Shown: positions 8,801 through 37,297 of the stretch, piece by piece
Numbering within the stretch: position 1 is the first letter of the stretch
Layout of the letters: each line of letters opens with the position of its first letter
Assembly: GCA_964567095.1 (NCBI GenBank)
Contig: CAZMKN010000001.1
Coordinates: 11,675-75,674, forward strand
Direction of reading: 5' to 3'
Source of the DNA: an uncultured Candidatus Saccharibacteria bacterium
GTDB lineage: Bacteria; Patescibacteriota; WWE3; UBA101185; UBA10185
DNA: 64,000 bases
Translations under genes and position numbers: made by a program
The notes under the pieces: generated by a model
What the model was told of the DNA's origin: nothing
What the model saw: the letters and a program-made list of their open reading frames with translations, nothing else
Databases searched by the model: none

Positions 8801-9196
8801 ATGGTGGACACAGATATTAATAAACTTAATGATACTGATGATGTAGTGGATTCCGGAAGCATCGAAGCTGTTCGTATGCCTGCGCAAACACCTCCAGAAG
8901 CATTCCCTTTAAGGGAAAAGTTAAAGTCTGTTGAAAGTGAGAAGGCTTTGGAGGCTTTTCCGTCTCCACGACCCCCTATGCCAAAAACAAGATCGGAGTC
9001 TCTAGAGGAAGAACTTTCTGTAGGAATGGGAGAAGATGATCCTGTGAGTAAGTCGGAGGGGCGTTTGGTAGACACACGCGGGAAAGGCGACGTGTCTAAA
9101 ATCGAAACTTTAGATGAGCTAACCAAATACGGAGATCAGGAAGAAAATAAGTTCATTAAAGGTGTCAAGTCTGCCCATGGACCTAGCGAATCTTAA
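8801..9196 (+). CDS. hypothetical acidic, low-complexity protein
   Basis: The ORF shows no recognisable domain and is rich in D/E/S/P. It overlaps the start of the downstream ATPase. Confidence 0.35.
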   Translation: MVDTDINKLNDTDDVVDSGSIEAVRMPAQTPPEAFPLREKLKSVESEKALEAFPSPRPPMPKTRSESLEEELSVGMGEDDPVSKSEGRLVDTRGKGDVSKIETLDELTKYGDQEENKFIKGVKSAHGPSES

Positions 9197-23330: not shown

Positions 23331-23446
23331 TATAACTTATTATAGGGTGTTTTTCGACTTCATGTTGGACAAACCCAGGACAGTCTTGGTTTAAATGGAC
23401 ACAGTTTAGACAGCATGTTTTGAGACTCGTTCACTCACACAATTTT

Positions 23447-24961
23447 TTAATATTTAAAGACCTTCTCAGAGATCCTGAATTTTTCAATGATCGCGCTATT
23501 CTCATCGTTATTTTTGACCAAAATAATTGTGTAATCATCTACATATATTGGTGACCAGCTCGTATCTTTTATCCTTTCGATTAGAAAGGGCTGCGCCCAG
23601 GGAGTTGCATCGTGTCTATAAAAGTAGATGGTCTGGAAGTTGTAGGTTTTGTCCCATTGTTTCCACGTTTCCTCATTCTCTTGTATTTTAATGTAGGTGT
23701 TCTTTAGAAAATCTACGCTATATGCCTCCGGTCGATTGTCTACAAAAACTTTTTGTTCTGGATATAAGTGGTATATTAAATATCCTCCAATGTCGTAATT
23801 GTTGAATATTGGGCCTTTTAAGCTGTTTTCCTTGAAAAATTCTGCGGAGTTATTGTTGTTTGGTAGCACGCCCATCCCAGTTTGTGTGTCAAAGGGGGAG
23901 TAGTAGAAGTTTTTTGTAAATATTCCTAACAAACCTAATCCTATGGAAAAAAGATACACCGTCTGCCCGTTTTTATCTGGAAGTCTTGGTATCCTTGCAA
24001 AAAAAGGTATAGCAAAAAACCCAAATAGCGGGATTATCCTGATCATCTTAAATCCGAGAATGGCAAAAGTTATTGTAGGAATAACAAAAATGACCCTTTC
24101 CTTAAATGATTTTTCTTTAACGAAAAATGCAATAAGAACCGGTACTAGAAGTAGCATGACTTCATAGTGGACATATAAGAACTTGGGAAATCTTCTCTGC
24201 ATGAATAAGACAGACTGGTTTTCCACTATCATATACCCGTATTCTCTAAAGATCATGAAAGGTTCTACTAAGCCTTTAAATCCGTATGGATTTATTAAAC
24301 ATATTAGTGTGGACAGGAAAATTATTATTGATATCTGTCTTACATACTCACTATCTTTTTGGTTTATTAATCCGTCTAACCAAAAAATACCGATCAGAAA
24401 TAATCCGAATATGAAAAATATATGTAAATTTACCCATAGGAGCTGTAATCCTAAAATTAATGGGAGTACAAATCTGAACTTGAGTTGTTTTTTGCGAAAT
24501 TTGTAGAGTGCGAAAAATAAAATTCCAAGGAAAAGGTAGCTAAAACCTTCCGGTCGGATCTCAGTTCTACTCACAATAAGTGGAATAGTCAGAATAGATA
24601 CGATGGTGGCTTTTTTTATTGATGTTTCTTCCTTTGCAATAAGAAAGAATAGGACTATTGGTATGGCGTTAATAAATGCATAAAAAATCGATAGGCCTGT
24701 GAAACCTACCCAACCATGTACTTTTGCAAATATTATTCCTGAAGCCCAATGATGGTTTATAGTTTTGTTTTCAGGTTCAGTATATGAGTAGAAGTTGGTA
24801 GAGATTATTTGCTTGGTTGCTAATGTGATTTGGCCGTTTTTTATATGTCGTCCAAGGTCGGCAGTTGTTAGGTTTATTTTCTTAGCAAAGAAAAAGAAGC
24901 TGTAGAGAAAAATAAATGTTGTTAAAACTAACGCGACGACTTTATCCTCCATTTTGATCAT
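23447..24961 (-). CDS. polytopic membrane protein, GT-C-like (ArnT/PMT-type) with a C-terminal soluble domain
   Basis: About 11 TM helices and then a ~140 aa soluble C-terminus. The start is probably at MIKMEDKVV... (24961), not the listed 25012, because an intergenic repeat occupies 24994-25062. Confidence 0.4.
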   Translation of the reverse strand: MIKMEDKVVALVLTTFIFLYSFFFFAKKINLTTADLGRHIKNGQITLATKQIISTNFYSYTEPENKTINHHWASGIIFAKVHGWVGFTGLSIFYAFINAIPIVLFFLIAKEETSIKKATIVSILTIPLIVSRTEIRPEGFSYLFLGILFFALYKFRKKQLKFRFVLPLILGLQLLWVNLHIFFIFGLFLIGIFWLDGLINQKDSEYVRQISIIIFLSTLICLINPYGFKGLVEPFMIFREYGYMIVENQSVLFMQRRFPKFLYVHYEVMLLLVPVLIAFFVKEKSFKERVIFVIPTITFAILGFKMIRIIPLFGFFAIPFFARIPRLPDKNGQTVYLFSIGLGLLGIFTKNFYYSPFDTQTGMGVLPNNNNSAEFFKENSLKGPIFNNYDIGGYLIYHLYPEQKVFVDNRPEAYSVDFLKNTYIKIQENEETWKQWDKTYNFQTIYFYRHDATPWAQPFLIERIKDTSWSPIYVDDYTIILVKNNDENSAIIEKFRISEKVFKY

Positions 24962-24993
24962 GGAGAAATTATAACAGGGCGAAAAGCAGCAAT

Positions 24994-25062
24994 GGTCGAG
25001 CACGTCGGTCATGAAATTTCAGAAAATGTTGTACGATACTCGGCTTCTCTAGGATACATGGT
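24994..25062. repeat. intergenic repeat copy A (GGTCGAG-N6-GGTCATGAAATTT...)
   Basis: GGTCGAGCACGTCGGTCATGAAATTTCAGAAAATGTTGTACGATAC... is ~70% identical over ~70 nt to the copy at 26011. Confidence 0.6.
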
Positions 25063-25065
25063 TGA

Positions 25066-25983
25066 TTATAGCGAACCATGTTTACATCTTTTTAGTGCCT
25101 TTAATATATCAAGTATAGAGTCAGAAATATTGCCCTCCTGAAGATTTTCAAAAAATGTGGTTATAAATAGCATGCCTCTATTTTTTTCCAACTCCAAACC
25201 CTTTTCTATTTCATAATTATCAAAGACACGCTCACTTATAAACCCAATATGTACAGCCCTAATTAAATGTTCCTCGAAGCAAATTCGCCAATTATTGTAT
25301 GCTTTCGGATATTTCGGATGTTGTTTTGCCTCTTCAAGTAAATTTTCGATTTCATCAATATCTTTTCTATAAGGTTTTAATACTTCCTTTGCAATTGGAT
25401 GAGAACCTTCATGAATAATAGCGTGAAGTAGTGCTCGTTTGTTAATTTCCCCCATAACACCTACTACTTGGTAATTAATGTTTCCAATCTGTGGTCCAAA
25501 GCTTCCGTGGGTAAATGGGTTTGGAATTACGACCATTTCATTTTTTACTTTCTTTCCCCATACTCTTTCTAACATTTCCTCAACATTTGCTTGTGAAATA
25601 ATTTGTTCCATTTCTTTTTTTATAGCTTCAAGGGAAATTTCTAGTTCCTTATAATAAGTTTTAAAATCAGTTTTATTGTAGAAATCAACTAAATAGGGTT
25701 TAATAATTTTACCTTTATCAATATGCCAGTGAAGTTCCGAGGATATCTCAACATTTCTCGGTTCAAATTCTGGAGGTTTACCAACGGTTAGTGACCAAAC
25801 CACCACCTTGTGCTCATGAATATATTCACCTACTTTTGGTGCATTTCCCATATAATCTTTGAAATGATTTTTTACCTGTTCTTGTAATGGGTGGGTGTTT
25901 GAATCTCCACCTGCCTGGTCAAATCTATTTAGAAATGAGTAGAGAAGTGTGAGATTTTCATTGGTTTCAACTCGTATACTCAT
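25066..25983 (-). CDS. putative zinc metallopeptidase-like protein (HExxH)
   Basis: AIIHEGSHPI contains HExxH. Otherwise no recognisable domain. Confidence 0.4.
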   Translation of the reverse strand: MSIRVETNENLTLLYSFLNRFDQAGGDSNTHPLQEQVKNHFKDYMGNAPKVGEYIHEHKVVVWSLTVGKPPEFEPRNVEISSELHWHIDKGKIIKPYLVDFYNKTDFKTYYKELEISLEAIKKEMEQIISQANVEEMLERVWGKKVKNEMVVIPNPFTHGSFGPQIGNINYQVVGVMGEINKRALLHAIIHEGSHPIAKEVLKPYRKDIDEIENLLEEAKQHPKYPKAYNNWRICFEEHLIRAVHIGFISERVFDNYEIEKGLELEKNRGMLFITTFFENLQEGNISDSILDILKALKRCKHGSL

Positions 25984-26010
25984 ATGGTAATAATAACAAA
26001 GTAGACTTGG

Positions 26011-26097
26011 TTGAGTACGTTGGTATTGAAATTTCTGGAAATGTTATTCCATACATGGTTTCTCCAGGCTATATGGTCGAGAAGGAGCGATGAATCT
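26011..26097. repeat. intergenic repeat copy B plus partial B'
   Basis: GGTTGAGTACGTTGGTATTGAAATTTCTGGAAATGTT...CATACATGGTTTCTCCAGGCTATATGGTCGAGAAGGAGCGATGAAT, with a second GGTCGAG start at 26077. Confidence 0.6.
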
Positions 26098-26371
26098 TGA
26101 ACAGCTTTTACCACTTGCAGAATCTATATTTGAGAATTGGAATACAGAAAAGTTTGATGAGAGTTTGTTAGTTCCAGTAGGTATGGGTATGAAATATGCG
26201 GCTTCCTACAAGTATTAGCTTTGAAAACAAAAACAACTCCATAGGGAGTTGTTCATAATGGAAGCGAGTCTCTTGATGATTCTTCATCATTGTAGGCGCC
26301 CAATCGTGCCTCGTTATTCGATGCTAAAAGCACCTATATTCGCTTGATAAGTAAATTGTATCATATGAAAA

Positions 26372-26387
26372 TGGTCGGGGTGACAGG
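26372..26387. repeat. att-like direct repeat matching the 3' end of tRNA-Pro (15/16 nt)
   Basis: TGGTCGGGGTGACAGG here versus TGGTCGGGGTGACTGG at 36254-36269, which is the acceptor/T-arm 3' end of the minus-strand tRNA. Confidence 0.5.
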
Positions 26388-26549: not shown

Positions 26550-26750
26550 TTATTTAGTAAATATTCCTATACAGGCGTGTTGCTCTAACTTTCCTGGATT
26601 TGTGGGATTTTTGTAGACCTTTGTAACGATTCTTATCCCCATGCAATTTTCTATCACGCCTCCGGCATCATGTCTGTTGAATAGGAACAATCCAAGTGCC
26701 GTAATTACTACTAATATGCTGAATGCAATGAAAATCGACTTTGTGTTCAT
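26550..26750 (-). CDS. small hydrophobic protein (66 aa)
   Basis: Single predicted TM helix. The call is weak. Confidence 0.25.
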   Translation of the reverse strand: MNTKSIFIAFSILVVITALGLFLFNRHDAGGVIENCMGIRIVTKVYKNPTNPGKLEQHACIGIFTK

Positions 26751-26802
26751 AACTATATATTATCAAAAAAACATGGTTTGCCATAGCTGACCACATTTGT
26801 AA

Positions 26803-26985
26803 CTATTTCTTGGGAGTAAAGAAGTAACTTATTGCACAAAATCCAAACCCGAACAGTTCTATTATTAGTATAAATAACAAACTAGTATGACCTGAAACAA
26901 CAAAATAACCGGAAATCAGGGTTAAAAAACCAAAGAAGCTCATGAGATTTCTTGATAATAATTTACTCACGTTGTAATTGTACAA
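26803..26985 (-). CDS. small hydrophobic protein (60 aa)
   Basis: Two predicted TM helices. The call is weak. Confidence 0.25.
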   Translation of the reverse strand: MYNYNVSKLLSRNLMSFFGFLTLISGYFVVSGHTSLLFILIIELFGFGFCAISYFFTPKK

Positions 26986-26994
26986 AATTTTCCT

Positions 26995-27040
26995 GGTCGA
27001 GAAGTACGGTCATGAAATATTATTCTCTTCAGGATGTAAA
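26995..27040. repeat. intergenic repeat copy C
   Basis: GGTCGAGAAGTACGGTCATGAAATATTATTCTC. It lies immediately upstream (in minus-strand sense) of the small 60-aa ORF at 26803-26985. Confidence 0.55.
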
Positions 27041-27117: not shown

Positions 27118-27558
27118 CTAAACTTCAAGAATGGTCTTTAAGTTTTCAAGCATCTGACGTGTTGTGTTTTGGGCAATTTTATTAATTATTAGTTTGTTCG
27201 TTATTCTTTGTAATGCGGTTTCCGAAAGTTCATAGTCGATTTGAACTTTTACTTCTGTACTGCCATTATCTGTCGAAGTTAACTCGTAGGTCCATGTTGA
27301 GTCAGCGTCTCCTTTTGAGGAAATCACGACTTTAGTTGGAGCTGTATATTCTATAACCTCAGCTTTTCCTCTAAGGTCGCTTCCAGCCATGTTAAATCGC
27401 CAATCAAATTTTTGACCAACACCGTCTTGTTCAGGGAAGATATTGGTATTCTCGTTTAAATTAGGTACGAAAGCTGGGCCATTATACGGGGATGCCATAT
27501 AGGTAAAAACTTCGTTTAACGGTTTATTAATAGTAGTTTTTGATGAAACTGTAGTCAT
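27118..27558 (-). CDS. SRPBCC (Bet v1-like / polyketide cyclase-like) small-ligand-binding protein
   Basis: At 146 aa, its secondary-structure pattern and size fit the SRPBCC/Polyketide_cyc2 fold. Confidence 0.4.
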   Translation of the reverse strand: MTTVSSKTTINKPLNEVFTYMASPYNGPAFVPNLNENTNIFPEQDGVGQKFDWRFNMAGSDLRGKAEVIEYTAPTKVVISSKGDADSTWTYELTSTDNGSTEVKVQIDYELSETALQRITNKLIINKIAQNTTRQMLENLKTILEV

Positions 27559-27608
27559 TTTTGTGTTCCTTAAAATAATTACGCTTACTATTTGAGTTTA
27601 TCACAAAA

Positions 27609-28064
27609 TTAAAGTAGATAATTTTGGATGAACTTTCTGAATACTTCCTTGGTGATGAGCACTCTTTTCGAATATTTCTTTGTACTAAATATAACTAGGT
27701 TTAATTTTCTACATAATTTATATGATTTTATTTTTGTACTGCTATCGATTAAGTGGACATCAGCTAAATGTTCCACGGGGGATCTTGTTATATTGGAAGC
27801 CTTTTCAAGAGCTTCGAATATATGTATTGTTGTTATTCCATACACTAACCACATTTCAGTAGTAAAGAAAAGCATTGCTATTAGGATTGCTATGGCTAAA
27901 GACCAGACGCCAAAAGATGGAAAGCTGATTAAACTTAAGGATACACCAAGTGCAGTCAAACCTCGTTGTCTAACTAGTATTGGCCTGTTTTTGTGTAAGG
28001 GTAATACAAAATAATAAGCTGCTAATGTAATCACGCCTACACATGCAAAATAGAAAACTACCAT
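27609..28064 (-). CDS. small membrane protein (151 aa, ~4 TM)
   Basis: Hydrophobic ORF that is co-oriented with, and tightly spaced to, the lipid operon. Confidence 0.4.
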   Translation of the reverse strand: MVVFYFACVGVITLAAYYFVLPLHKNRPILVRQRGLTALGVSLSLISFPSFGVWSLAIAILIAMLFFTTEMWLVYGITTIHIFEALEKASNITRSPVEHLADVHLIDSSTKIKSYKLCRKLNLVIFSTKKYSKRVLITKEVFRKFIQNYLL

Positions 28065-28088
28065 AATATTATTCTATGTTACTTTGTT

Positions 28089-28982
28089 TCATACGCAAAA
28101 TATAGTGATCGTCGTGTAAGTTAGTATTATGTAGAGAAGTGTGGTGGATCTATAAAGTTTTGCGAAGAGAGTATCTTTTGAGATTGCGTATATAAGTCCC
28201 ACAAAACCCATTACCACAGTAAAAATAACGATTAAATTTATATTAAGTGCAACTGGTACCTTATCTAGAAACAGTATGTTAAGTGCAGCCATTAACATTA
28301 CTAATAGAACCGCGCCCAATTTCCCAAATACTTTAGAATATGAGTTTAAGTTTTTCTTTTCTTCACTTTGGGCATAAGTTTTTCTACCAAACTCAAAAAT
28401 ATTGAATATAAACCATCCTCCGAACGAAAAATATAGTAAATCAAGCGAAAAGTCCGCGGGATCGTTAGCAAACAGAGCGATAAATAGAGTTTGTGATATA
28501 AGTATCACTATAAAAGTGTGAGTTATAGCATATGTAGTAAGGTGTGCTCTCAGCCATTCTTTTAAGAAGAACTCTTTATACATTAGTAAAGAATAGCCAA
28601 TAGTAATTAAACAGAGTAATAAAGGTTGTTTACCGTAGAACGAGAATATAAGAATTTCTACTATAATGAGGAAAAGTATGACCTGTTTAATCTCCCTTTT
28701 ATGAAGAAACCCTCGGGGCACGGGTCTTTCAGGATGAAAATTTTTGTCAAACTCAATATCTTTAATTTCATCATATAAACGTAAGATGAAGAAAAAAAGC
28801 GCAACTGCTAAAAATAATGGTATTAAGTGAAGAAAATCAGAGTACGATTCATGGAGGTCAGTAGCTATAAGATGGGTATACAAAGTGTAATGACTACCAA
28901 TAAAAACTACGATCATTGGGAAATGGTATAGGGGATTAAAACGTTCCATAATGAATTGTATCCATCTACTTAAGCTTTTCAT
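28089..28982 (-). CDS. UbiA-family aromatic/isoprenoid prenyltransferase
   Basis: Polytopic protein with LYDEIKDIEFDKNFHPERPVPRG, an Asp-rich motif plus the RP(L/V)P(S/R)G signature of UbiA enzymes. Confidence 0.6.
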   Translation of the reverse strand: MKSLSRWIQFIMERFNPLYHFPMIVVFIGSHYTLYTHLIATDLHESYSDFLHLIPLFLAVALFFFILRLYDEIKDIEFDKNFHPERPVPRGFLHKREIKQVILFLIIVEILIFSFYGKQPLLLCLITIGYSLLMYKEFFLKEWLRAHLTTYAITHTFIVILISQTLFIALFANDPADFSLDLLYFSFGGWFIFNIFEFGRKTYAQSEEKKNLNSYSKVFGKLGAVLLVMLMAALNILFLDKVPVALNINLIVIFTVVMGFVGLIYAISKDTLFAKLYRSTTLLYIILTYTTITIFCV

Positions 28983-30621
28983 TTAGCTCCTGTCGCAAAT
29001 CATTGTAGTTAACTTTGCTGTGATGTCTAACATCCATGGGTATCTTTTCTAAGTACACTACTTTATCAAGTGGAATTTTGGCGTCTCTGAAAGTTTTAAA
29101 AATCGTGTCTTTGCACTTATTTTTATCCTTGTTGTTCTCATTAAGTGTCACAACAGCCGTAATAGTTTGTTTGTTTTTACAATTTAGGTCTATATAAGCA
29201 GCATTAGAAACAAAGGATAGGTTTTTTAGTAAAATTTCTGGTTGAACAGGAAACAGATAATCATTTTTATATTTAATTACATTGTGTTTTCTTCCCACTA
29301 TCCATAAGGAATCGTTGTCGTCTATTCTGGCTAAATCTCCTGTGCGATGCCAAATAGCCCCATTTTTATCTATAATTTTCGAACGAGTAAATGCTTCGGC
29401 GTTTTTATAGTATTCTTTGCAGACATTTTCACCTGTAACCACAAGTTCACCCACTTCTCCTTTTTTCACTTTTAGTGTAGATAAATCTGTAGGTTCATTA
29501 AAACATTTTGTGCCTATGTTTATAAATTCATATTTTAAGTGCTCATCGATTTTGCCAACATTCACACCTTTTTTTGTTACGTTTTTTATTTTGGAAGACT
29601 CAGTACTAAGCATTTCTTTTGCTTCGATATAAGAAATTGGTTCTACTTCAGTGGATCCGTATAGTATCCAATTTTTTGAGTTTGGTGTTATTTCTGTAAA
29701 ATTTGAAATATCTGTTTCACTTATAGGTGCGCCCCCAGTTAATACTCTGGAGATATTTTGTAAAGATTTATTATTTTTGTTGCAATATTTAGTTAAACTT
29801 TTGAGAGATGATGGTGCAAGTGTCATACAAGTGACTTTACATTCTTCAATTTGAGATAGGAGTATTTCAGGATCTTTTGGAGTGGGACGACTGACATCTA
29901 TTGCTGGGATAACCGTTGATATACCAGATGCTAGGTTGTTTAAAGTGAAAACTGGAAATACAGGTAAATCAATATCACTGTTTTTGTAAGGAAATAATCT
30001 TTTCAGAGCACAATGCTGTGCGCAAAGAAATCTGTGTGTTCTGTTCACTCCCTTTGGCGTTCCTGAACTACCTGTCGTGTATGTTAAAAGGCCTGTTTGT
30101 TCTTGGTTAACGGGCTGTATTTTATGAGGAGCATTGTCTAGCAATCCTTTAGTGTTTTGTGAATCCAAAGCCCAAAAGTTGTTGTTTGATATTTGAATCT
30201 TAGTTTTAAGATTATTGAAATACTCTTTAAATACGGGTAGCCACGTATCTAACGATATGATGCCAACAGGATTGGCATTTTTCATTATGGAAATCAACCG
30301 GTCCTTACGAGTTATGGAATCTATGAGAACTGGAACTGCTCCAAGAACCTGTAATCCCACTAGAGCTATATACAATTCAACCGAAATTGGCGCCACAACA
30401 ATCATATTTTCGTTCTGTTTTATTCCAAGGTTGTGTAAGCTTTTAGCAAATCTAATTGTTTTATCGTATAGCTGGGCATATGTAATTTGTTCATAACTGG
30501 TAGGAGATTTATTAGATTTGAAATAGAATGCAACCTTATCACCATTATCTTGTGCATGTTTTTTTAGAAAATAAGCCACATTGTTTTTAATACTTAATGT
30601 TGGATGGTGACCTGTTTTCAT
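28966..30621 (-). CDS. acyl-AMP ligase (ANL/AMP-binding superfamily; fatty acyl-AMP ligase-like)
   Basis: AMP-binding motif LTYTTGSSGTPKGV. The start at ATG 30621 overlaps the upstream stop (ATGA). The N-terminus resembles FAAL. Confidence 0.7.
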   Translation of the reverse strand: MKTGHHPTLSIKNNVAYFLKKHAQDNGDKVAFYFKSNKSPTSYEQITYAQLYDKTIRFAKSLHNLGIKQNENMIVVAPISVELYIALVGLQVLGAVPVLIDSITRKDRLISIMKNANPVGIISLDTWLPVFKEYFNNLKTKIQISNNNFWALDSQNTKGLLDNAPHKIQPVNQEQTGLLTYTTGSSGTPKGVNRTHRFLCAQHCALKRLFPYKNSDIDLPVFPVFTLNNLASGISTVIPAIDVSRPTPKDPEILLSQIEECKVTCMTLAPSSLKSLTKYCNKNNKSLQNISRVLTGGAPISETDISNFTEITPNSKNWILYGSTEVEPISYIEAKEMLSTESSKIKNVTKKGVNVGKIDEHLKYEFINIGTKCFNEPTDLSTLKVKKGEVGELVVTGENVCKEYYKNAEAFTRSKIIDKNGAIWHRTGDLARIDDNDSLWIVGRKHNVIKYKNDYLFPVQPEILLKNLSFVSNAAYIDLNCKNKQTITAVVTLNENNKDKNKCKDTIFKTFRDAKIPLDKVVYLEKIPMDVRHHSKVNYNDLRQELNEKLK

Positions 30622-31358
30622 AAAATCATACCTTTTTTTTGAAATATTTTTATCTGTTCTAAACTTGGTGTTGAAGTTATTTTTGGAGTGATGCAATTGT
30701 TTGGAGTTCCTGTTGGTAATTTTCCTGTTTGATCTATTTTATTGATAAAGCTAACTACAGCCTCTTTTTCTTTTTGAGCACAAGTTTTTAGATATTTGAT
30801 ATAGTTTCTTTCGGGTTTAATTTTTTCCGTATAGTAAATACTACCCCTGTCAATTTTTTTAACCATTTTATGAATAGAAAAACCGGTATCTTTATTTTCT
30901 GCCAGGGCATTGAGATCACAAAATAATCCTTTTTGTTTTGGTAATAATCCGTGATGTACATTTACACAACCTAATCTTGGAATGTTTAAAATTTTGTTTT
31001 TAAATATACATCTAGTACGCATGTTGATAACTATGTCCGGTTTTAAAGAGTTAACCCAAGATACTGCGGTACGACTATTAACATCAGAAATGTTTACAAA
31101 TGGTATTGCGTATTTCTCAAGCATTCTTTCTTTAGTTTTAGAGATTGAACTTATAATATTTCTAAAAAGGGTTTTTGCTATATTTTTGCATCCAGCAAGA
31201 TAAAGATATGGTATTTTAGTAAATATTCTGCCTTTATTAATATCCACTAAAACCACTCCTGCCAAGTGATTTTTTGATCTGGAGAGTATAAAATCTAGTA
31301 CATCCCTATAATTGTTTGGCGCATAAGTGATGCTGGATGTTACTAAAACTATTCTCAT
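30618..31358 (-). CDS. formyltransferase-domain protein (Fmt/ArnA N-domain-like)
   Basis: MRIVLVTSS... Rossmann start and CVNVHHGLLPKQKGL, which corresponds to the formyl-transferase N(I/V)H.SLLP..RG motif. Confidence 0.6.
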   Translation of the reverse strand: MRIVLVTSSITYAPNNYRDVLDFILSRSKNHLAGVVLVDINKGRIFTKIPYLYLAGCKNIAKTLFRNIISSISKTKERMLEKYAIPFVNISDVNSRTAVSWVNSLKPDIVINMRTRCIFKNKILNIPRLGCVNVHHGLLPKQKGLFCDLNALAENKDTGFSIHKMVKKIDRGSIYYTEKIKPERNYIKYLKTCAQKEKEAVVSFINKIDQTGKLPTGTPNNCITPKITSTPSLEQIKIFQKKGMIL

Positions 31359-31360
31359 GT

Positions 31361-32446
31361 TTATAATTTTCTATATATACCAAAGGAATACATTTGGATT
31401 TTTTCTTGTCTAATCAAATTTTTATAATCATTAGTAATATCAACGTAACCATTTTCATTTAATTTCTCTGGTATTCTCATATAATAGCGGTTGACTATAA
31501 TCCCGCCTGGAGAAATACTGTCGCGAATTTCTTGAAGAAAGTTTTGTTCTTGAGGTGGTTTTAGATAGGATGGAATATCAGACATCGACAAAAAAGTGGT
31601 TGGTTCGGGCGTGTTTTTGGTTACTTCTATAATATTTTGATGTTTATAGTTAATATTTGTTTTTTCTAAAGCATTTTTAGCACTCAAAAAAATATCTATA
31701 TCTGCCTCCAGTGGAGCTCCCTCAAGAAATTTAATTTCTCCAAAAAAAAGTAACTGCAAAAAATAATTATGGCTAACTAACCCTTGCTTAAACAAGTTGT
31801 CGAATCTTTCCAAATAGAATTTTTGATAGGTCCCACCAATATTCTTTTTGGGGAAATCACCTCTATATAATAATGTATTAAAGACAGCGGCATTTCCTAG
31901 TAAGTAAACTGCTAAGGACCAATTTCTCTTGGGAAATTTAGAAGAAAAATATATTTTCTGTTCTTCTAACGTTTTACACGAAAATACATCCAGTCCTTTT
32001 TTTCCAACTAAACCCCTTACAATCTTACTTAATTTCTTAAAAGTTTTTTCCCATTTTCCTACGTATAGGATAGGATTCCAATTATTTGTGTTAAATATAT
32101 TAGAGGTAATATTTTTAGCATCAGGTGATAAGGCAAGATTTTCGAATATATCGCGTCTTTCTTTATTGCACATGGTGCCTTTTGTGTACCCCCAAAATGC
32201 TAGAAACTTTTGGTGAGTTAAATATTTGACTGTGGCTAAACGTAACTCTACTAGAGCCAGCTGTTCTATTGAAAGATCAACGCAGGTAAGTTGTTGTGGG
32301 GATTTTGCGAGTAAAGGGATTATTCTTGAACCGCTACCGGCGGCAGCAATTACATGCCGTGTTTTTTTCGGAAGTAACTCCCACTCAAGCGTAGTATCTT
32401 CATTTCCCAGAGTGTAATTTAGTGCGTTGAAAAATCCATCTTTCAT
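31361..32446 (-). CDS. DUF3419 / BtaA-like SAM-dependent (3-amino-3-carboxypropyl)transferase-like protein
   Basis: HVIAAAGSGSRIIPLL...LTCVDLSIEQLALVELRLA...FLAFWGY parallels the BtaA signature (itSaGcN...VDlNpaQ.aLLELK...F..FfG). The assignment is from memory of that family. Confidence 0.45.
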   Translation of the reverse strand: MKDGFFNALNYTLGNEDTTLEWELLPKKTRHVIAAAGSGSRIIPLLAKSPQQLTCVDLSIEQLALVELRLATVKYLTHQKFLAFWGYTKGTMCNKERRDIFENLALSPDAKNITSNIFNTNNWNPILYVGKWEKTFKKLSKIVRGLVGKKGLDVFSCKTLEEQKIYFSSKFPKRNWSLAVYLLGNAAVFNTLLYRGDFPKKNIGGTYQKFYLERFDNLFKQGLVSHNYFLQLLFFGEIKFLEGAPLEADIDIFLSAKNALEKTNINYKHQNIIEVTKNTPEPTTFLSMSDIPSYLKPPQEQNFLQEIRDSISPGGIIVNRYYMRIPEKLNENGYVDITNDYKNLIRQEKIQMYSFGIYRKL

Positions 32447-32469
32447 AAATAGATAATATCATTCGTGTT

Positions 32470-33639
32470 TTAAACTTTAATATGTTCTAGGATATTTTCT
32501 TTTGCATATGTGTTTATAGAATGCAGGAATTTACGCGTTATCTTTGGGGGATTTCCTAAGTATTTTTGGGCATTAATTCTGTCAAAAAAATATCTTTTAC
32601 TGACATAGGGTATATACCAACTGACATGTTTTGTATATTTACGAATAGGAAATACCAAAACATATAATAAATGAATGAGTGACTTGAATACCCAGGACGT
32701 AACTGGTATTAGCTTAGTTTTATTAATCCCCATATCATACAAAATGTTCTTTAATACAAAATTAAATTCTGGAGGTTCCGGATGCGTAAGATTAAGTGTA
32801 ATACCTTTTAGATTATTTTTGCAAGATACAACCATAGAATTAATAACATAATCAATTGGTATCATATTAACTCTACCTGTTTTAGGATATGGAATAACTA
32901 ACCATGGGAGATCCAGAACATTCTCAGATTTATGGTAATTGGTTCCTAATAAATCTAATATTTTCGCTGGTAATTTATCCTTTTGCAAAGAACCAATAAC
33001 GCTCTTTTTTAGAAAGTGGAACATAAAAGTAAAACGATAATACCCAAAAGTGCAACCCTCGGCTTTTCCAATATAAGCATCCCCGATAATAATAGAAGGT
33101 CTGAAAATCACATACGGTAAATCACAGTTTTCGCGAACATATTGTTCCCCCCTTAATTTTGATTTTTCATATTGGTTTCTATGTTTCTGTCCCACATCCA
33201 ATTCCTCTTCTGTAAATGAGTAGTGATTTCCACAAACATATGCAGTACTCATATGCATAAACTTAACACCTGTTTTATTTGCAAAATCAACCACATTTAC
33301 AGTTCCCTCGTAGTTTGTTTTATTCACTGTAGATTTATCTGATTTAGAAAATGATAAGTTTGCAGCAAGGTGCCAGAATACTGTGTCATTGTGTTTCAGT
33401 TCATTACAAATTTCTTTTGAAATGCCCAGGTTTTGATCTAATATATCTCCCTTCAGAACTTTAAAGTTATTAGGATACTTTGTTAACTGTTTACTAAATA
33501 TTTTTTTTGCTCTCATTTCAACGGTGCTACCATCTAGATTTCTTATTATTATCCAAACTGTTTCTCCTTCGTTTAGGAGAGCACTAACCAGGTTTCTTCC
33601 AACAAAGCCTGTGGCACCTGTTACAAAGTGTATTTTCAT
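32470..33639 (-). CDS. NAD(P)-dependent thioester/fatty-acyl reductase (NAD_binding_4, 'male sterility' family)
   Basis: MKIHFVTGATGFVGRNLVSALL Rossmann motif, a catalytic YxxxK region and a C-terminal extension as found in fatty-acyl reductases. Confidence 0.6.
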   Translation of the reverse strand: MKIHFVTGATGFVGRNLVSALLNEGETVWIIIRNLDGSTVEMRAKKIFSKQLTKYPNNFKVLKGDILDQNLGISKEICNELKHNDTVFWHLAANLSFSKSDKSTVNKTNYEGTVNVVDFANKTGVKFMHMSTAYVCGNHYSFTEEELDVGQKHRNQYEKSKLRGEQYVRENCDLPYVIFRPSIIIGDAYIGKAEGCTFGYYRFTFMFHFLKKSVIGSLQKDKLPAKILDLLGTNYHKSENVLDLPWLVIPYPKTGRVNMIPIDYVINSMVVSCKNNLKGITLNLTHPEPPEFNFVLKNILYDMGINKTKLIPVTSWVFKSLIHLLYVLVFPIRKYTKHVSWYIPYVSKRYFFDRINAQKYLGNPPKITRKFLHSINTYAKENILEHIKV

Positions 33640-34283
33640 AAAATAAAGTATAGAACAATGCCGGAGGAAATTGGAATGAAAACATTATCCCACCCTTTGC
33701 TAAAAAGACTTTCCACTAAGGTTACTGCAAGAGTGCCCATAAGAACTGCTTGAATTTTGTTTAATGAGAAATTACTCTCGTGGATTAGTAAACTACTGAA
33801 AATAAAAAGGGTCACCAGAAAAAAGGTTAAACTACCTTCTACAGTCTTTAAACCGGTAAGATTATATTTGTGTTTTCCATACCTATTACCTATTATTCCT
33901 GCCATTCCGTCCGAGAAGCCAAGGATAAGGATCGCACCCTGAAATATTACTGGGTTATATGACCAAAATAATAGAGCCACAAAAATAATAGTAATTGGAA
34001 ATAAAAAAGCCCCATGACTACCAGTGTCGTTTTCGTGTACACTTTTCAAAACTTTATAACGTTTTGAAAATAAAAGAAGTAAAAAGAAAAAGATGCCAAG
34101 TACTACAACACCTTGCAGGTTAATAAACAGTGGCATAAGTGCAGCAACGATACTCCCACCAATGTGTACGACTTTTCGAGTTATGTAGGGAGCAACATTC
34201 CTCTTATAAAGAACCTCTCCAATTCCAAAAACAATAAGATATAAAATTACTATTAATAAAAAGTTAATATTGAGTATATTCAT
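33636..34283 (-). CDS. CTP-dependent polyprenol/phytol/dolichol kinase-like membrane protein (CdsA/CTP_transf_1 superfamily)
   Basis: RKVVHIGGS and GNRYGKHKYNLTGLKTVEGSLTFF, the latter matching the G..K...KT.EG signature shared by phytol/dolichol kinases and CdsA. Confidence 0.45.
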   Translation of the reverse strand: MNILNINFLLIVILYLIVFGIGEVLYKRNVAPYITRKVVHIGGSIVAALMPLFINLQGVVVLGIFFFLLLLFSKRYKVLKSVHENDTGSHGAFLFPITIIFVALLFWSYNPVIFQGAILILGFSDGMAGIIGNRYGKHKYNLTGLKTVEGSLTFFLVTLFIFSSLLIHESNFSLNKIQAVLMGTLAVTLVESLFSKGWDNVFIPISSGIVLYFIL

Positions 34284-34284
34284 A

Positions 34285-35877
34285 TCAGATTTTTACCTTT
34301 CCTTCATGCAAATCTAGAGTTATTTCTACACCACTCTTAATAAAACTAGTTATTTTTTCAACTCCTACAATACAGGGTATATTTAATTCACGTGCGACAA
34401 TAGCTGCATGTGATAGCATTCCCCCTCTCTCTACAACTATGCCTCTTAGCAAAGGAAATACTATAGTCCACCCGGGATCTGTTTGTCGGGTGACCAGGAT
34501 TTTACCCTCAAAATCAGCTGTTGGGTCGAAATCCATAAGGGATAAAGAAACTCCTGTTACCACCTTTGTATTTACAGGTCGCGAGGCAACTCTTCCAATA
34601 AATGTGCGTTTTTCGGGAGCTTTCGTTACCAATTTTGCTTTAAGCAGTTCTTTTTCAAGCTGCATCACAGTCTTTATAGTCTCAAACCTATGAGCAAGAT
34701 CAATTTTGCCCCATTTATTAAATTCCTTTTTTCTACGTGTTACGCATCTTAAAGTATCTATTTTTTTATTACCGTTAATGATGTCGAAAATCTCATCAAT
34801 CCTTAAGAAATAGATATCACGTTTATTATTGATGATTTGTTCTTTTTCAAATCTGATACCTATATTTATAAAAATTTCTCTTATCAACCCAAAGATCAGT
34901 GTTCTTTTAAATCGAGATTCTTCTCTTCTTTTAATTGAGTTATCAGCCCATTTTAACAACCATTTTAGAAAAATCCTTCTAAAAAGGTTCAAACTTTTTA
35001 GCTTATTGTGATTTACTGAGTTTTTACTGATTTTCTTATTTATTGATTTAACTTGTAATAGTGACTGAAGCAATAATATTAGATTTTCGGGTTTTTCATT
35101 TAGTGTCTCAGACTCTAATTTTAGCTCGTTTGGTATTCTGGTACCAAAATTTTCAATATAACTTCTGATATCAACACTGACCTGTTGTTCTGAATAAATG
35201 TTTTCTAGAGAATTAACTATCTTGTGTGGTTCGTTTTCGGAAAACAACTTTTTTAATTTCGGATTTTCCTTTATTAACGAAATGATATTTGCTAATTTTT
35301 TACCCGGATCGAGAGTTACCAATGGGGTATTTGTATCTGATCTCATATACATATAAGCATCTGATGAATTTAGCCAGGATTTGAACAGTTTATCTGCTGC
35401 CCCCGTGCTTACCATTACAGCAAAATCATTTGCAATTGGAGCCCGCCAACGTGATAGGAGTTTTTTTGCTGCTTCATTGTATATACTCATCAATTCTTTT
35501 GTGTTTAGTTTAGTCAAATCTATAGAATTTAATTTTGAGTAAACTTTATTAAAATAAGAGTTAAACCTGGGTACAGTAAATTTTAGTGAACCGAAAGTAA
35601 TTGAAATACGAAAAAATTGATACACAGTCTTGGGCAGGTAAATAAGATTCTTTCTGAAAAAAGTGAGTGGAGTATTCTCATCATTGTTGTCGAAAGTTTT
35701 CCTAATTGTTACACCCATCATTTTTTCCATAAATTCACTACTTAATTTATGAGCAGGAAAAAAAGAAAGCATTTTGTACCAACTACTCAGGTTGTAGTAG
35801 ATTCTGTATCCGATAAATTCCACCATACATTCAAACATGGGTTTATTGTCTTTGATGACCCTTTCACTAGCCCCCAT
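34285..35877 (-). CDS. PEP-utilising-enzyme mobile (swivel His) domain protein, PEP synthase/rifampin-phosphotransferase-like
   Basis: The C-terminal GGMLSHAAIVARELNIPCIVGVE is the phospho-His swivel-domain signature. The ~420 aa N-terminal region is unassigned. Confidence 0.55.
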   Translation of the reverse strand: MGASERVIKDNKPMFECMVEFIGYRIYYNLSSWYKMLSFFPAHKLSSEFMEKMMGVTIRKTFDNNDENTPLTFFRKNLIYLPKTVYQFFRISITFGSLKFTVPRFNSYFNKVYSKLNSIDLTKLNTKELMSIYNEAAKKLLSRWRAPIANDFAVMVSTGAADKLFKSWLNSSDAYMYMRSDTNTPLVTLDPGKKLANIISLIKENPKLKKLFSENEPHKIVNSLENIYSEQQVSVDIRSYIENFGTRIPNELKLESETLNEKPENLILLLQSLLQVKSINKKISKNSVNHNKLKSLNLFRRIFLKWLLKWADNSIKRREESRFKRTLIFGLIREIFINIGIRFEKEQIINNKRDIYFLRIDEIFDIINGNKKIDTLRCVTRRKKEFNKWGKIDLAHRFETIKTVMQLEKELLKAKLVTKAPEKRTFIGRVASRPVNTKVVTGVSLSLMDFDPTADFEGKILVTRQTDPGWTIVFPLLRGIVVERGGMLSHAAIVARELNIPCIVGVEKITSFIKSGVEITLDLHEGKVKI

Positions 35878-36136
35878 TAAACGAGAGAAATGTTGGTATA
35901 CCTCTTGATAAACGTATCGTACAAAAGAAAATGTAAGGGGCGTAGTAACACCCGAGTAACTTTCGGCAATATTAGAATTATCGTAAATTATTTTATTATT
36001 TTTATCGCTTATTAAAACATTATAACTTAGTATCCTAGTGGCATTTACTGTTTTTTAGAACTTTCCATATTTTTCAAGATTCCTCCAGATAATCCGTTAT
36101 TGATAGCATATACGTGTTTTAACATCGCTAGAATAT

Positions 36137-36170
36137 CAAGCAAAACCAAGCAAAACCAAGCAAAACAGAG
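36137..36170. repeat. short tandem repeat (CAAAACCAAG x3, last copy degenerate)
   Basis: caag-caaaaccaag-caaaaccaag-caaaacagag. Confidence 0.5.
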
Positions 36171-36253: not shown

Positions 36254-36332
36254 TGGTCGGGGTGACTGGACTTGAACCAGCGAAACCTCCCGGCCCCCAG
36301 CCGGGCGCTCTAGCCAACTGAGCTACACCCCG
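36254..36332 (-). tRNA. tRNA-Pro (anticodon GGG), CCA encoded
   Basis: Minus strand reads CGGGGUG-UA-GCUC-AGUUGGCUA-GAGC-G-CCCGG-CUGGGGG-CCGGG-AGGUUUC-GCUGG-UUCAAGU-CCAGU-CACCCCG-A-CCA. It has a 7-bp acceptor with C1:G72 and A73 (both typical of Pro), G37, and a T-loop UUCAAGU. Confidence 0.8.
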
Positions 36333-36400
36333 TCAACAGAAGGGATTATATCATAGTAAGATCCTTGACTCTTTCGGTATTTCTTCGTATAATCATTCCA

Positions 36401-37297
36401 ATGCCCACACTTATTTCCGTAACTTGTATAAACTGTAAAAAGCACTATTCCATTACACTAAAAAGGTATAACGAATCTCTTAAGAAAGGTTGGAATTTCT
36501 ATTGTAGTCCTGAGTGTAGGAAAGAATTTCGTAAGACGGGTAAGCTACTCACCTGTGACAATCCTGATTGTTCCAGTAAATTTTATAGAGCTAAATGTTT
36601 CATTAATGAGACTGGTAATTTCTGTTCCCAAAGTTGTGCTGCCTCCATTAACAACAATCTTAGGAAAAAAGAGCTGTCAAAGATCTGTGCCAACCCTTCC
36701 TGTGATAATAAAATTCCCCCTAGAAATACCTATTGCTCCAATAAATGCAGGGGGGAAGTTTTGAGGAAATCCGAAAGCTATTATAAGGAAAAAACCCTGA
36801 AAGGAATTAACGATTTTGTGCGATCTCACGGAAGAATTCCCCTGAAGGTTGAGTTACCCTCCACTTATACCTTTTCTAGGAAGGGTTTTGGTACCTGGAA
36901 TAAAGCTATAAAAGCCGCAGGACATATGCCTAACCCCATTCTCTTTGCTCGCAAACACATTGCTTTGGATGGCCATGTTTGTGATTCATTCTCCGAAATG
37001 ATTATAGATAATTGGTTATACAGTTATTCTATTCCCCATAAAATAAACGTACATTATCCCAAGAATTCCAAACTCACCACCGATTTTGTAGTAGGTGACT
37101 ATTGGATAGAATTTTTTGGTTTGGCAGGAGATTTAATCGCTTATGACAAAAATGTGCAGAGAAAACTTCGAATAGCTAAGGACCAAAATTTGGAATTGAT
37201 TAAACTTTATCCAAAGGACTTATATCCTAAAAATATATTGGAGAAAACACTACAACCTGTTTTATATCACTATGCTAAAGCCTTCGTGTTTGTATAG
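36401..37297 (+). CDS. zinc-ribbon-repeat protein with an uncharacterised C-terminal domain
   Basis: Five or more consecutive CxxC...CxxC modules (CINCKK...CSPEC, CDNPDC...C, CSQSC, CANPSCDNK...CSNKC), then a ~170 aa domain (ALDGHVCDSFSEMIID...DFVVGDYWIEFFG). The listed 36365 start is TTG; ATG at 36401 is more likely. Confidence 0.45.
   Translation: MPTLISVTCINCKKHYSITLKRYNESLKKGWNFYCSPECRKEFRKTGKLLTCDNPDCSSKFYRAKCFINETGNFCSQSCAASINNNLRKKELSKICANPSCDNKIPPRNTYCSNKCRGEVLRKSESYYKEKTLKGINDFVRSHGRIPLKVELPSTYTFSRKGFGTWNKAIKAAGHMPNPILFARKHIALDGHVCDSFSEMIIDNWLYSYSIPHKINVHYPKNSKLTTDFVVGDYWIEFFGLAGDLIAYDKNVQRKLRIAKDQNLELIKLYPKDLYPKNILEKTLQPVLYHYAKAFVFV

Follow-up and report, generated by a model that had tools for sequence, protein, structure and literature searches.

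How members of the Patescibacteria (candidate phyla radiation, CPR) obtain and shape their membranes is, to our knowledge, an open question in the field, and reviews depict these bacteria as being without many typically essential pathways. The question is raised again by a group of nine co-oriented genes at positions 27118-35877 on the minus strand of a 64-kb stretch of DNA (here called the window, to which positions refer unless a locus is named), numbered g1 to g9 in minus-strand reading order from 35991 down to 27118: what would a bacterium of this kind make with such a set of enzymes? The answer to which we incline, with somewhat better than even confidence, is that this segment is a functional operon, probably horizontally acquired, for the multi-step making or re-tailoring of an amphiphilic lipid. 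The initial annotation of this DNA had proposed an undescribed lipid or lipid-like pathway, and this remains the best reading now that the checks on protein families and co-conservation have been passed and a literature search has found no published description of the cluster; the product is predicted from the enzymes.

Organization of the nine-gene cluster and its host

The nine minus-strand open reading frames (ORFs) of the initial annotation were recovered at the same coordinates in the ORF list, with a probable extension of g1 up to 35991 (Table 1), and the tight gaps and overlaps that it had described were found unchanged. Overlaps of 4 nt of the ATGA type join g2 to g3 (33636/33639) and, provided that g6 starts at ATG 30621, g5 to g6 (30618/30621), and g6 and g7 overlap by 17 nt. 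The remaining genes are separated by gaps of 1 nt (g1/g2, 34285/34283), 23 nt (g3/g4), 2 nt (g4/g5), 24 nt (g7/g8) and 50 nt (g8/g9). From this spacing, the nine genes probably form one operon with a single transcript. When the segment was scanned for promoter and terminator consensus sequences, site counts were not above those of shuffled sequence.

Searches with hidden Markov models confirmed eight of the nine family calls made previously, the BtaA-like (DUF3419), UbiA, formyltransferase, AMP-binding, NAD_binding_4, PEP-utiliser and SRPBCC calls all being supported, whereas the polyprenol-kinase-like call for g2 received weak support (see below).

With regard to the host, the EF-Tu encoded 23 kb from the cluster has its greatest similarity (79-85%) to proteins named as candidate division WWE3, Patescibacteria group, Pacebacteria and Curtissbacteria, and genes for PNPase, RNase J, FtsK and a MiaB-like enzyme are found in the left part of the window. 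These data indicate that the window derives from the chromosome of a Patescibacterium. At least 11 metagenome contigs carry the cluster in identical or near-identical form.

Table 1. Coordinates of the cluster genes and associated features in the window, listed in minus-strand reading order.
Feature	Position	Strand	Evidence
tRNA-Pro(GGG), 3' end towards cluster	36254..36332	-	ARAGORN; Rfam RF00005, 58 bits
g1: RPH/PigC/HpeH-type small-molecule dikinase component, Rph_4th substrate-binding + phospho-His swivel	34285..35991	-	PF00391, PF27448, structures
g2: 215-aa polytopic membrane protein, candidate CTP_transf_1-superfamily lipid-alcohol kinase (dolichol/phytol/DAG-kinase-like)	33636..34283	-	
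g3: NAD_binding_4 ('male sterility'/thioester-reductase-type) extended SDR	32470..33639	-	PF07993, motifs
23-nt spacer where closest relatives carry a ~275-aa ATP-grasp (PPDK_N) subunit gene	32447..32469	.	Locus comparison
g4: putative DUF3419 (BtaA-family) SAM-dependent transferase	31361..32446	-	PF11899, structure model
g5: stand-alone formyltransferase catalytic domain	30618..31358	-	PF00551, motifs
g6: ANL-superfamily adenylate-forming acyl ligase, PRK09274/OleC-like clade	28966..30621	-	PF00501, NCBIfam
g7: divergent UbiA-superfamily membrane alkyl/prenyl transferase	28089..28982	-	PF01040, motif
g8: 151-aa membrane protein, found in Patescibacteria-type clusters	27609..28064	-	Homologue positions
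g9: predicted SRPBCC/START-like hydrophobic-ligand-binding protein	27118..27558	-	PF10604
Small hydrophobic ORFs of 60 and 66 aa, located between g9 and att-like repeat	26550..26985	-	ORF list
Direct 16-nt copy of the tRNA-Pro 3' end (15/16 identical), candidate distal att remnant	26372..26387	.	Repeat + pattern search
Terminator-like hairpin, 10-bp stem + T-run, strongest one 3' of cluster	26231..26254	-	Consensus scan only

Conservation in Patescibacteria and Bdellovibrionota

A search with DUF3419, the family of g4, yielded about 140 relatives and a scan of genome collections yielded 80 loci, against which all the proteins of the window were compared by tblastn (loci are given L numbers). 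The same gene order, with nine or ten genes, was found in L013 (Ca. Nomurabacteria GW2011_GWF2_43_8), in L014 and L094 (Patescibacteria metagenome-assembled genomes, MAGs), in L015 and in L016/L095, with identities of 33-77%; L015 has lost both its short-chain dehydrogenase/reductase (SDR) gene and the ATP-grasp gene described below. A second architecture (L096 and L024) consists of genes for a g2-like protein, a DUF3419 protein, a formyltransferase (FMT), an AMP-ligase, a UbiA protein, a fused 898-aa dikinase, a PlsC-type acyltransferase (PF01553), an SDR, g8 and g9.

Outside the Patescibacteria, dozens of loci of Bdellovibrionota/Oligoflexia carry together the genes for DUF3419, FMT, an alpha/beta-hydrolase, AMP-ligase, UbiA and a fused dikinase of ~900 aa, to which they add a YegS-type lipid kinase (DAGK_cat), an SDR and a 711-aa protein and, downstream, a MacB/LolCDE-like ATP-binding cassette (ABC) transporter and a LolA-like protein. 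Both versions of the cluster contain a lipid kinase or a candidate for one, encoded by non-homologous genes (CTP_transf_1-like g2 vs. DAGK_cat). The 711-aa protein (L011, 7912-10047) had no match in Pfam. Its C-terminal half (residues 320-687) matches PigE, in the N-terminal part of the latter (150 bits), and also a cyanobacterial acyl-acyl carrier protein (acyl-ACP) reductase (49 bits). Fuller sets with UbiA and dikinase were seen in MAGs only, such as that of Bacteriovorax stolpii (L031), the complete genome of Halobacteriovorax marinus SJ having just the DAGK/SDR/711-aa/DUF3419 part. A few matches fell in Legionella, Pseudomonas, Nitrosovibrio and a cyanobacterial MAG as well, the full cluster being absent from most of these.

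Counting genes within the fetched flanks only, at least three of the four genes for FMT, AMP-ligase, UbiA and dikinase were present in 44 of 83 non-redundant DUF3419-anchored loci, and in a neighbour-joining tree of the DUF3419 proteins the Patescibacteria type with a split dikinase formed one clade. The genes are strongly clustered in relatives and not scattered, in agreement with the single system that had been proposed. It is next to inconceivable that nine unrelated genes became adjacent by chance: each of the families is common on its own, but the same order and composition recur, with identities of 33-77%, in at least six independent loci of the Patescibacteria type, the core stays together in more than half of the DUF3419-anchored loci, and start and stop codons overlap within the cluster. 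Chance juxtaposition can therefore be excluded for practical purposes. A cluster of this type is widespread in Bdellovibrionota, with the segment as its version in Patescibacteria, and this broad presence means that the chemistry of the cluster is testable in a better-characterised group.

The locus L016, which is the same as L095 (CAZDHE010000010.1), is titled 'uncultured Bdellovibrionales bacterium', and its DUF3419 protein is named '[Patescibacteria group bacterium]' by NCBI. Its cluster adjoins ribosomal-protein and rpoA genes and a restriction-modification system.

g1 as the swivel half of a split dikinase

Read from ATG 35877, g1 encodes 530 aa. It had been called a phosphoenolpyruvate (PEP)-utilising protein, which holds for its PF00391 (PEP-utilizers) domain (86.8 bits, above the gathering threshold), but it is actually half of an RPH/PigC/HpeH-type dikinase, with its partner missing and an odd start. 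The protein carries PF27448 Rph_4th, covers only model positions 364-889 of the 898-aa 'PEP synthase' equivalog NF004881, and has 5fbs/5hv1 as its closest solved structures (E = 1.6e-25), which are those of rifampin phosphotransferase (RPH; PMC4844700). According to the same paper, RPH combines ATP-grasp and substrate-binding domains with a C-terminal His swivel domain, which shuttles phosphate between the two sites, and an Arg-Glu pair has a role at the phosphotransfer site. The RPH-type substrate-binding and His swivel domains are found in g1, without the ATP-grasp domain. His490, in the motif GGMLSH(490)AAIVARE, was aligned in 14 of the 14 sequences printed, and R318/E319, the counterparts of R666/E667 of RPH, are kept in at least 95% of 34 sequences.

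A function of g1 as a PEP synthase or pyruvate phosphate dikinase (PPDK) was ruled out, as a domain for binding PEP or pyruvate is missing from it and the closest solved structures are those of RPH. Nor is its substrate likely to be rifampin, a phenol or a precursor of prodiginines.

The separate gene for the ATP-grasp subunit (PF01326) sits directly before the DUF3419 gene in L013 (5371-6183), L014 (4486-5328), L016/L095 (9167-9997) and L094 (9166-9996), whereas in L011, L096 and others the ATP-grasp part is fused to the dikinase (~900 aa). When the N-terminus of the L011 protein and the subunits of L013, L014 and L016 were used as queries, no PPDK_N-like sequence was detected in the 64-kb window (best E = 0.13). 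The separate ATP-grasp gene of the relatives corresponds to the two-component arrangement of the HpeI/HpeH dikinases; according to PMC12167813, HpeHI is a two-component dikinase whose HpeH subunit alone can transfer phosphate between substrates. Thus, g1 shares with RPH, PigC/RedH and HpeHI the RPH-type substrate-binding and phospho-His swivel domains, the catalytic His and the Arg-Glu pair, but differs from them in that the ATP-grasp component has gone from its cluster and from the window. With the cluster-encoded partner lost, g1 would use a partner encoded elsewhere or move phosphate between phosphorylated intermediates. The RPH and HpeHI texts consulted, and the abstracts returned by literature searches, make no mention of a linkage to UbiA-type genes. 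The loci described here provide a new context for dikinases of the RPH/PigC type, which occur in them as fused proteins, as two separate components, and as the remaining component of a split pair without its ATP-grasp half.

Regarding the 5' end of g1, homology to the 903-aa dikinase of L011 begins by tblastn at residue 325 of the latter, which corresponds to window position 35988 ('IYDNSNIAESY...'), 37 codons upstream of ATG 35877. An ATG stands 3-5 codons ahead of the 'IYDNSNI' motif in the relatives L013, L014, L016 and L024, and no in-frame ATG, GTG or TTG was found in the 37-codon extension or upstream of the motif in the window. Since the homology extends from 35988 and no canonical start codon is available there, the true 5' end of g1 is probably ATA 35991 or ATT 35988, the start having otherwise been lost.

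Purifying selection on the cluster

The cluster was compared with that of strain L093, which is 98.7% identical, with 115 substitutions and 0 indels, and in which all of the cluster ORFs are intact. The overall ratio of nonsynonymous to synonymous changes (pN/pS) was ~0.22 (p = 4e-15), with values of 0.14 for g1 (p = 2e-5) and 0.16 for g6; for g3 and g4 the substitutions were too few for significance. The 37-codon extension of g1 contains a single change, a synonymous one. The ratio for g1 and its intact ORF indicate that the dikinase half is kept by selection although its partner has gone.

These values bear on the idea that the cluster is here a decaying remnant of an acquired island, encoding an incomplete pathway, which we regard as very unlikely. 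Decay would agree with the loss of the ATP-grasp gene of L013, L014, L016 and L094, which has left a 23-nt spacer and no PPDK_N in 64 kb, with the lack of ATG, GTG or TTG upstream of the conserved 'IYDNSNI' and with the absence of both the SDR and the ATP-grasp gene from L015. However, nine ORFs have remained intact in two strains over 115 substitutions without any indel, the low pN/pS of g1 and its synonymous extension change speak for constraint, and the phosphotransfer residues His490, R318 and E319 are retained; moreover, the ATP-grasp partner could lie outside the window, and HpeH can shuttle phosphate by itself (PMC12167813).

Predicted activities of g2 to g9

For the membrane protein g2, the match to PF01148 had E = 0.026 only, a Pfam scan gave no significant match, Foldseek comparison of its model with the PDB gave no match with E < 0.1, and a profile search of the PDB with its alignment was also negative. 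The previous description as polyprenol-kinase-like is accordingly weak, and g2 is taken here as a candidate lipid-alcohol kinase of the CTP_transf_1 superfamily. The assignment of g3 is firmer, with 141.3 bits for PF07993, 153 bits for the N-terminal reductase part of PRK07201 and 86.7 bits for TIGR01746 (under its cut-off of 213). The motifs GATGFVG (TGxxGxxG) and YEKSK (YxxxK) are read in its sequence, suggesting a putative acyl-thioester or acyl-adenylate reductase that would produce an aldehyde or an alcohol.

g4 matches PF11899 with 113.2 bits (cut-off 28.2), its residues 5-358 aligning with positions 6-383 of the 385 of the model. The predicted structure has a class-I methyltransferase core split by a helical insert of ~190 residues, and it shows the Gly-rich motif I and the acidic residue following strand 2 that belong to the class-I S-adenosylmethionine (SAM)-binding fold. 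The structure model supports the use of SAM by g4 and cannot separate methyl from aminocarboxypropyl transfer. A profile search of the PDB with the DUF3419 alignment gave no match.

The adjoining g5 matches PF00551 (Formyl_trans_N) with 42.6 bits (cut-off 26.1), and its closest solved structures are Fmt, ArnA and sugar N-formyltransferases. N133, H135 and D170 and the motif HHGLLP are kept in at least 95% of 28 homologues, in a triad and folate-motif spacing which we take to match that of PurN and Fmt.

The pairing of g4 with g5 can be compared to BtaA/BtaB, the system for the betaine lipid diacylglyceryltrimethylhomoserine (DGTS). Common to both are a protein that falls over its full length in DUF3419, the family of BtaA, with a class-I SAM-binding core, and a next gene whose enzyme would modify an amino group. 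The cluster differs in lacking an N-methyltransferase of the BtaB type, the gene adjoining g4 encoding a formyltransferase instead. The kinship of g4 with BtaA is at the level of the Pfam family, and a tblastn search of plasmids with g4 for a genuine btaA-btaB pair returned only DUF3419 genes in other contexts.

Relatives of the DUF3419 protein, 40-41% identical, are also encoded in another small cluster on the Deefgea piscis plasmid NZ_CP054144.1 (L111, 11249-15100) and in Legionella anisa (L007/L008, 7402-11095). This cluster contains a haem-oxygenase-like 'iron-containing redox enzyme', to which the plasmid adds the SAM decarboxylase SpeD, an ABM monooxygenase and a serine hydrolase, and it looks like another SAM-linked uncharacterised pathway.

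The acyl ligase g6 scored 154 bits with PF00501, 383 bits with NF006754 (cut-off 478) and ~230 bits with OleC models, and its closest solved structures are 4-coumarate-CoA ligases and adenylation domains of non-ribosomal peptide synthetases (NRPS), not fatty acyl-AMP ligases (FAALs). The label 'FAAL-type' that it had received is therefore unsupported: the best models are PRK09274/OleC-like, the structures 4-coumarate-CoA ligases, and no ACP accompanies it.

For g7, the score with PF01040 was 39.1 bits, just over the cut-off of 34.2, and that with PRK13592 was 57.6 against a cut-off of 443; its 297-aa start is backed by alignments of homologues. The first Asp-rich motif (D71-E-I-K-D75-I-E-F-D79...RPVPRG) is conserved in 31 sequences, and the second (DxxxD) is replaced by a conserved F-N-I-F-E-F-G-R-K (N-x-x-E-x-x-R-K). 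The g7 group defines a UbiA subfamily with a changed second metal-binding motif.

The last two genes encode small proteins. g8 had no match in Pfam or NCBIfam, and its homologues occupy the same position in L013-L016, L024, L094 and L096. g9 scored 39.9 bits with PF10604 (Polyketide_cyc2) and is the best-conserved gene of the cluster (58-77% identity).

A possible lipid-tailoring pathway

Taken together, the gene set, the catalytic motifs and the split dikinase suggest the following order of events. g6 would adenylate a fatty or hydroxy-fatty acid, whose activated acyl group g3 would reduce to the aldehyde or the alcohol. Two enzymes, the membrane kinase g2 and the His-swivel dikinase g1, could then phosphorylate a lipid alcohol (alkanol, polyprenol or diacylglycerol-like), a dikinase of the latter type working by the route ATP -> His~P -> substrate, and g7 would use the phosphorylated lipid for an alkyl or prenyl transfer in which an ether or C-C bond is formed. 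On the hydroxyl of the lipid, g4 would place the 3-amino-3-carboxypropyl group of SAM, the new alpha-amine being N-formylated by g5 with 10-formyl-tetrahydrofolate, which would yield an anionic, phosphorus-free head group. Finally, g9 (SRPBCC) and g8 might bind or insert the hydrophobic product, a task that in the diderm relatives would fall to the LolCDE/MacB-like ABC exporter and the LolA-like protein. The best model for the product, deduced from sequence, is an acyl/alkyl or prenyl lipid with a SAM-derived, N-formylated aminocarboxypropyl head group.

A lipid is favoured as the product on account of the lipid kinases, the PlsC-type acyltransferase and the LolA-like proteins and MacB-type exporters of related clusters, together with the SRPBCC protein, the two membrane enzymes and the parallel with ElbD/ElbE discussed below. 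Against this reading stand several points. Co-transcription has gene spacing as its sole basis, and every chemical step rests on family membership, which for the kinase assignment of g2 is weak. g1 has no canonical start codon here and its ATP-grasp partner is absent from the cluster and the 64-kb window; dikinases of the RPH type, moreover, are known for phosphorylating hydroxyls and not as diphosphate makers. The Pfam search found no ACP among the nine cluster proteins, and g7 has lost the second Asp-rich motif. The contexts of DUF3419 genes vary as well, since they are found with haem-oxygenase-like proteins in Legionella, beside speD on the Deefgea plasmid and beside genes for KAS III and a CoF synthetase on a Rhizobium plasmid, and aminocarboxypropyl transfer to a lipid is thus not assured. 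Lastly, the similarities to PigC/RedH and to the N-terminal part of PigE suit a small-molecule natural product equally well.

This last point leads to the proposal that the cluster serves to produce a specialised small-molecule natural product in place of a membrane lipid, following an assembly logic like that of prodiginines: acyl activation and reduction to an aldehyde, O-phosphorylation by a PigC/RedH-like dikinase, condensation with a nucleophile, prenylation and formylation. The full-length dikinase of related clusters indeed scores 404 bits with RedH and 350 bits with PigC, the 711-aa partner has the matches to PigE and acyl-ACP reductase described above, g6 is related to OleC-type beta-lactone synthetases, and an island-like, patchy distribution is typical of secondary-metabolite clusters. 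We nevertheless consider this product unlikely, as the dikinase of L011 passes the equivalog cut-off of NF004881 and not those of PigC or RedH, genes for pyrrole, polyketide synthase, NRPS or carrier protein are missing, and the neighbours are centred on lipids (the YegS-type kinase, the PlsC-type acyltransferase, the LolA-like protein and MacB-type exporter, the SRPBCC protein and two integral-membrane enzymes).

A variant that keeps the lipid product is salvage or remodelling, in which fatty acids, polyprenols or diacylglycerol from a host or prey would be re-activated into own lipids with modified head groups. Plants salvage phytol with two kinases, the first of them a phytol kinase, and a transferase of the UbiA family (VTE5/VTE6/VTE2), which would be an analogous set. 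The cluster is almost confined to lineages that live off other bacteria (Patescibacteria and Bdellovibrionota/Oligoflexia), and it holds an acyl-activating enzyme and a lipid-alcohol kinase without genes for the synthesis of fatty acids, glycerol phosphate or isoprenoids. However, the lifestyle of the MAGs is deduced from taxonomy alone, the few matches in Legionella, Pseudomonas, Nitrosovibrio and the cyanobacterial MAG lie outside those lineages, and salvage overlaps the lipid-tailoring pathway so far that sequence data do not separate the two. We hold salvage to be possible, if on the unlikely side.

The lipid-tailoring operon proposed at the outset could be extended further, to a mobile 'lipid head-group' module exchanged among epibiotic Patescibacteria and predatory Bdellovibrionota, by which scavenged acyl, alkyl or prenyl lipids would be turned into a new class of phosphorus-free lipids whose head group is of the N-formyl-homoserine type (aminocarboxypropyl), with a UbiA ether or prenyl linkage fed by the His-swivel dikinase. 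This extension is speculative and distinctly unlikely; if it were true, some ultra-small bacteria could build membrane lipids of their own autonomously.

Comparison with known systems

The myxobacterial ElbD/ElbE system carries out ether-lipid synthesis (PMC9131029). It shares with the cluster a repertoire of AMP-ligase, FAR/NAD_binding_4-type reductase and NAD-epimerase-family protein, and also, in L096 and L024, the AGPAT/PlsC-type acyltransferase. The cluster differs from it in having these activities on separate proteins, not on one multidomain enzyme, and in having no ACP domain, and the elb operon as given in PMC9131029 lists no genes for DUF3419, formyltransferase, UbiA or dikinase.

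In the OleBCD pathway for olefins and beta-lactones, the similarity concerns g6 and its homologues, with the OleC scores given above, and g3, which matches OleD weakly; in addition, the Bdellovibrionota versions of the cluster have an alpha/beta-hydrolase beside the ligase. In contrast, the scores of g6 are far under the equivalog cut-offs (850-900 bits), there is no OleA thiolase and the remaining genes are unrelated. With VTE5/VTE6/VTE2 and the archaeal digeranylgeranylglyceryl phosphate (DGGGP) synthase, the cluster has in common a UbiA-family transferase, a phytol/dolichol-kinase-like protein and a second phosphotransferase, but g7 shows N-x-x-E-x-x-R-K in place of the second Asp-rich motif, and the second kinase is of the His-swivel type, not DUF92.

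The enzyme families are all known, whereas the combination of genes, the linkage of dikinase and UbiA, the pairing of DUF3419 with a formyltransferase and the spread over Patescibacteria and Bdellovibrionota appear to be undescribed. As the operon is conserved, under selection and apparently transferable, and has an enzyme set of lipid type, it offers a concrete and clonable candidate for lipid tailoring in Patescibacteria.

Island-like features at the tRNA-Pro junction

The initial annotation was silent on the island-like, horizontally acquired character of the segment. The cluster begins 262 nt from the 3' end of the tRNA-Pro(GGG) gene, and this gene and the repeat of its 3' end at 26372-26387 bracket 9.9 kb that comprise the nine genes and the two small ORFs. 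A pattern search with the tRNA 3' end found two matches, with 0.02 expected by chance. The GC content of the cluster is 33.0% vs. 40.5% in the rest of the window, and it is below that of the flanks in four of five related loci. Clusters next to tRNA genes were also found in L013 (directly after tRNA-Ala, tRNA-Val and a second tRNA-Ala) and L014 (directly after tRNA-Trp), and no att-like repeats of these adjacent tRNAs were found in either locus. Between 26372 and 36253 there is no integrase or recombinase gene, and an Rfam scan detected nothing besides the tRNA.

When metagenomes were scanned for an empty site with the gene beyond the tRNA, only an alternative junction was found, in contigs L097 and L098. 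Both are 99.6% identical to the window rightwards from 36254, but their left flank (1-2400 in L097, 1-930 in L098) differs and encodes a 243-aa membrane protein and cysS. Their tRNA-Pro(GGG) shares its 5' third with the window, whereas the anticodon stem, the T-arm and the 3' part differ. This comparison places a breakpoint of recombination, among populations that are nearly identical, within the tRNA gene. As the cysS flank is absent from the window, these contigs do not represent a clean empty site, and a simple insertion of 9.9 kb is not demonstrated. On the whole, it is likely that the cluster was horizontally acquired, and that it is a tRNA-targeted island is plausible but unproven.

A perfect tandem repeat of 10 nt, (CAAGCAAAAC)x3, is located at 36137-36166, in the 262 nt that separate tRNA-Pro from the start region of g1. 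On the other side of tRNA-Pro, adjoining it at the synteny breakpoint, a divergent gene (36365-37297, plus strand) encodes a 310-aa Cys-rich protein with a homing-endonuclease-associated repeat (PF18780).

Neighbouring sequences

Of the two small ORFs 3' of g9, that of 66 aa is also called as a gene in L001/L002. Neither it nor the 60-aa ORF had a match in Pfam, and both are uncertain members of the cluster.

Just 3' of the cluster, the 25-nt motif TGGTCGAGCACGTCGGTCATGAAAT is present in three copies (80-100% identical) spaced ~1 kb apart, at 24993-25017, 26008-26032 and 26994-27018, each of which reads on the minus strand as ATTTCATGACCG...CTCGACCA. One of the copies overlaps the annotated start of a 521-aa membrane protein, and another begins a 16-codon ORF. 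The 521-aa protein is encoded at 21486-25983 (minus strand), together with a second large polytopic membrane protein of 614 aa, both without a Pfam match, and a DUF4932 protein; these genes belong to the same low-GC stretch (0.33-0.38) 3' of the cluster, beyond the att-like repeat.

Farther to the left, positions 9162-11588 (plus strand) encode an 808-aa protein in which HerA/DUF87 and TraG-D_C (coupling-protein-like) domains are present. Next to it come two large ORFs without a Pfam match (11649-12887 and 12830-14437). These three genes may be part of an apparatus for DNA transfer or secretion.

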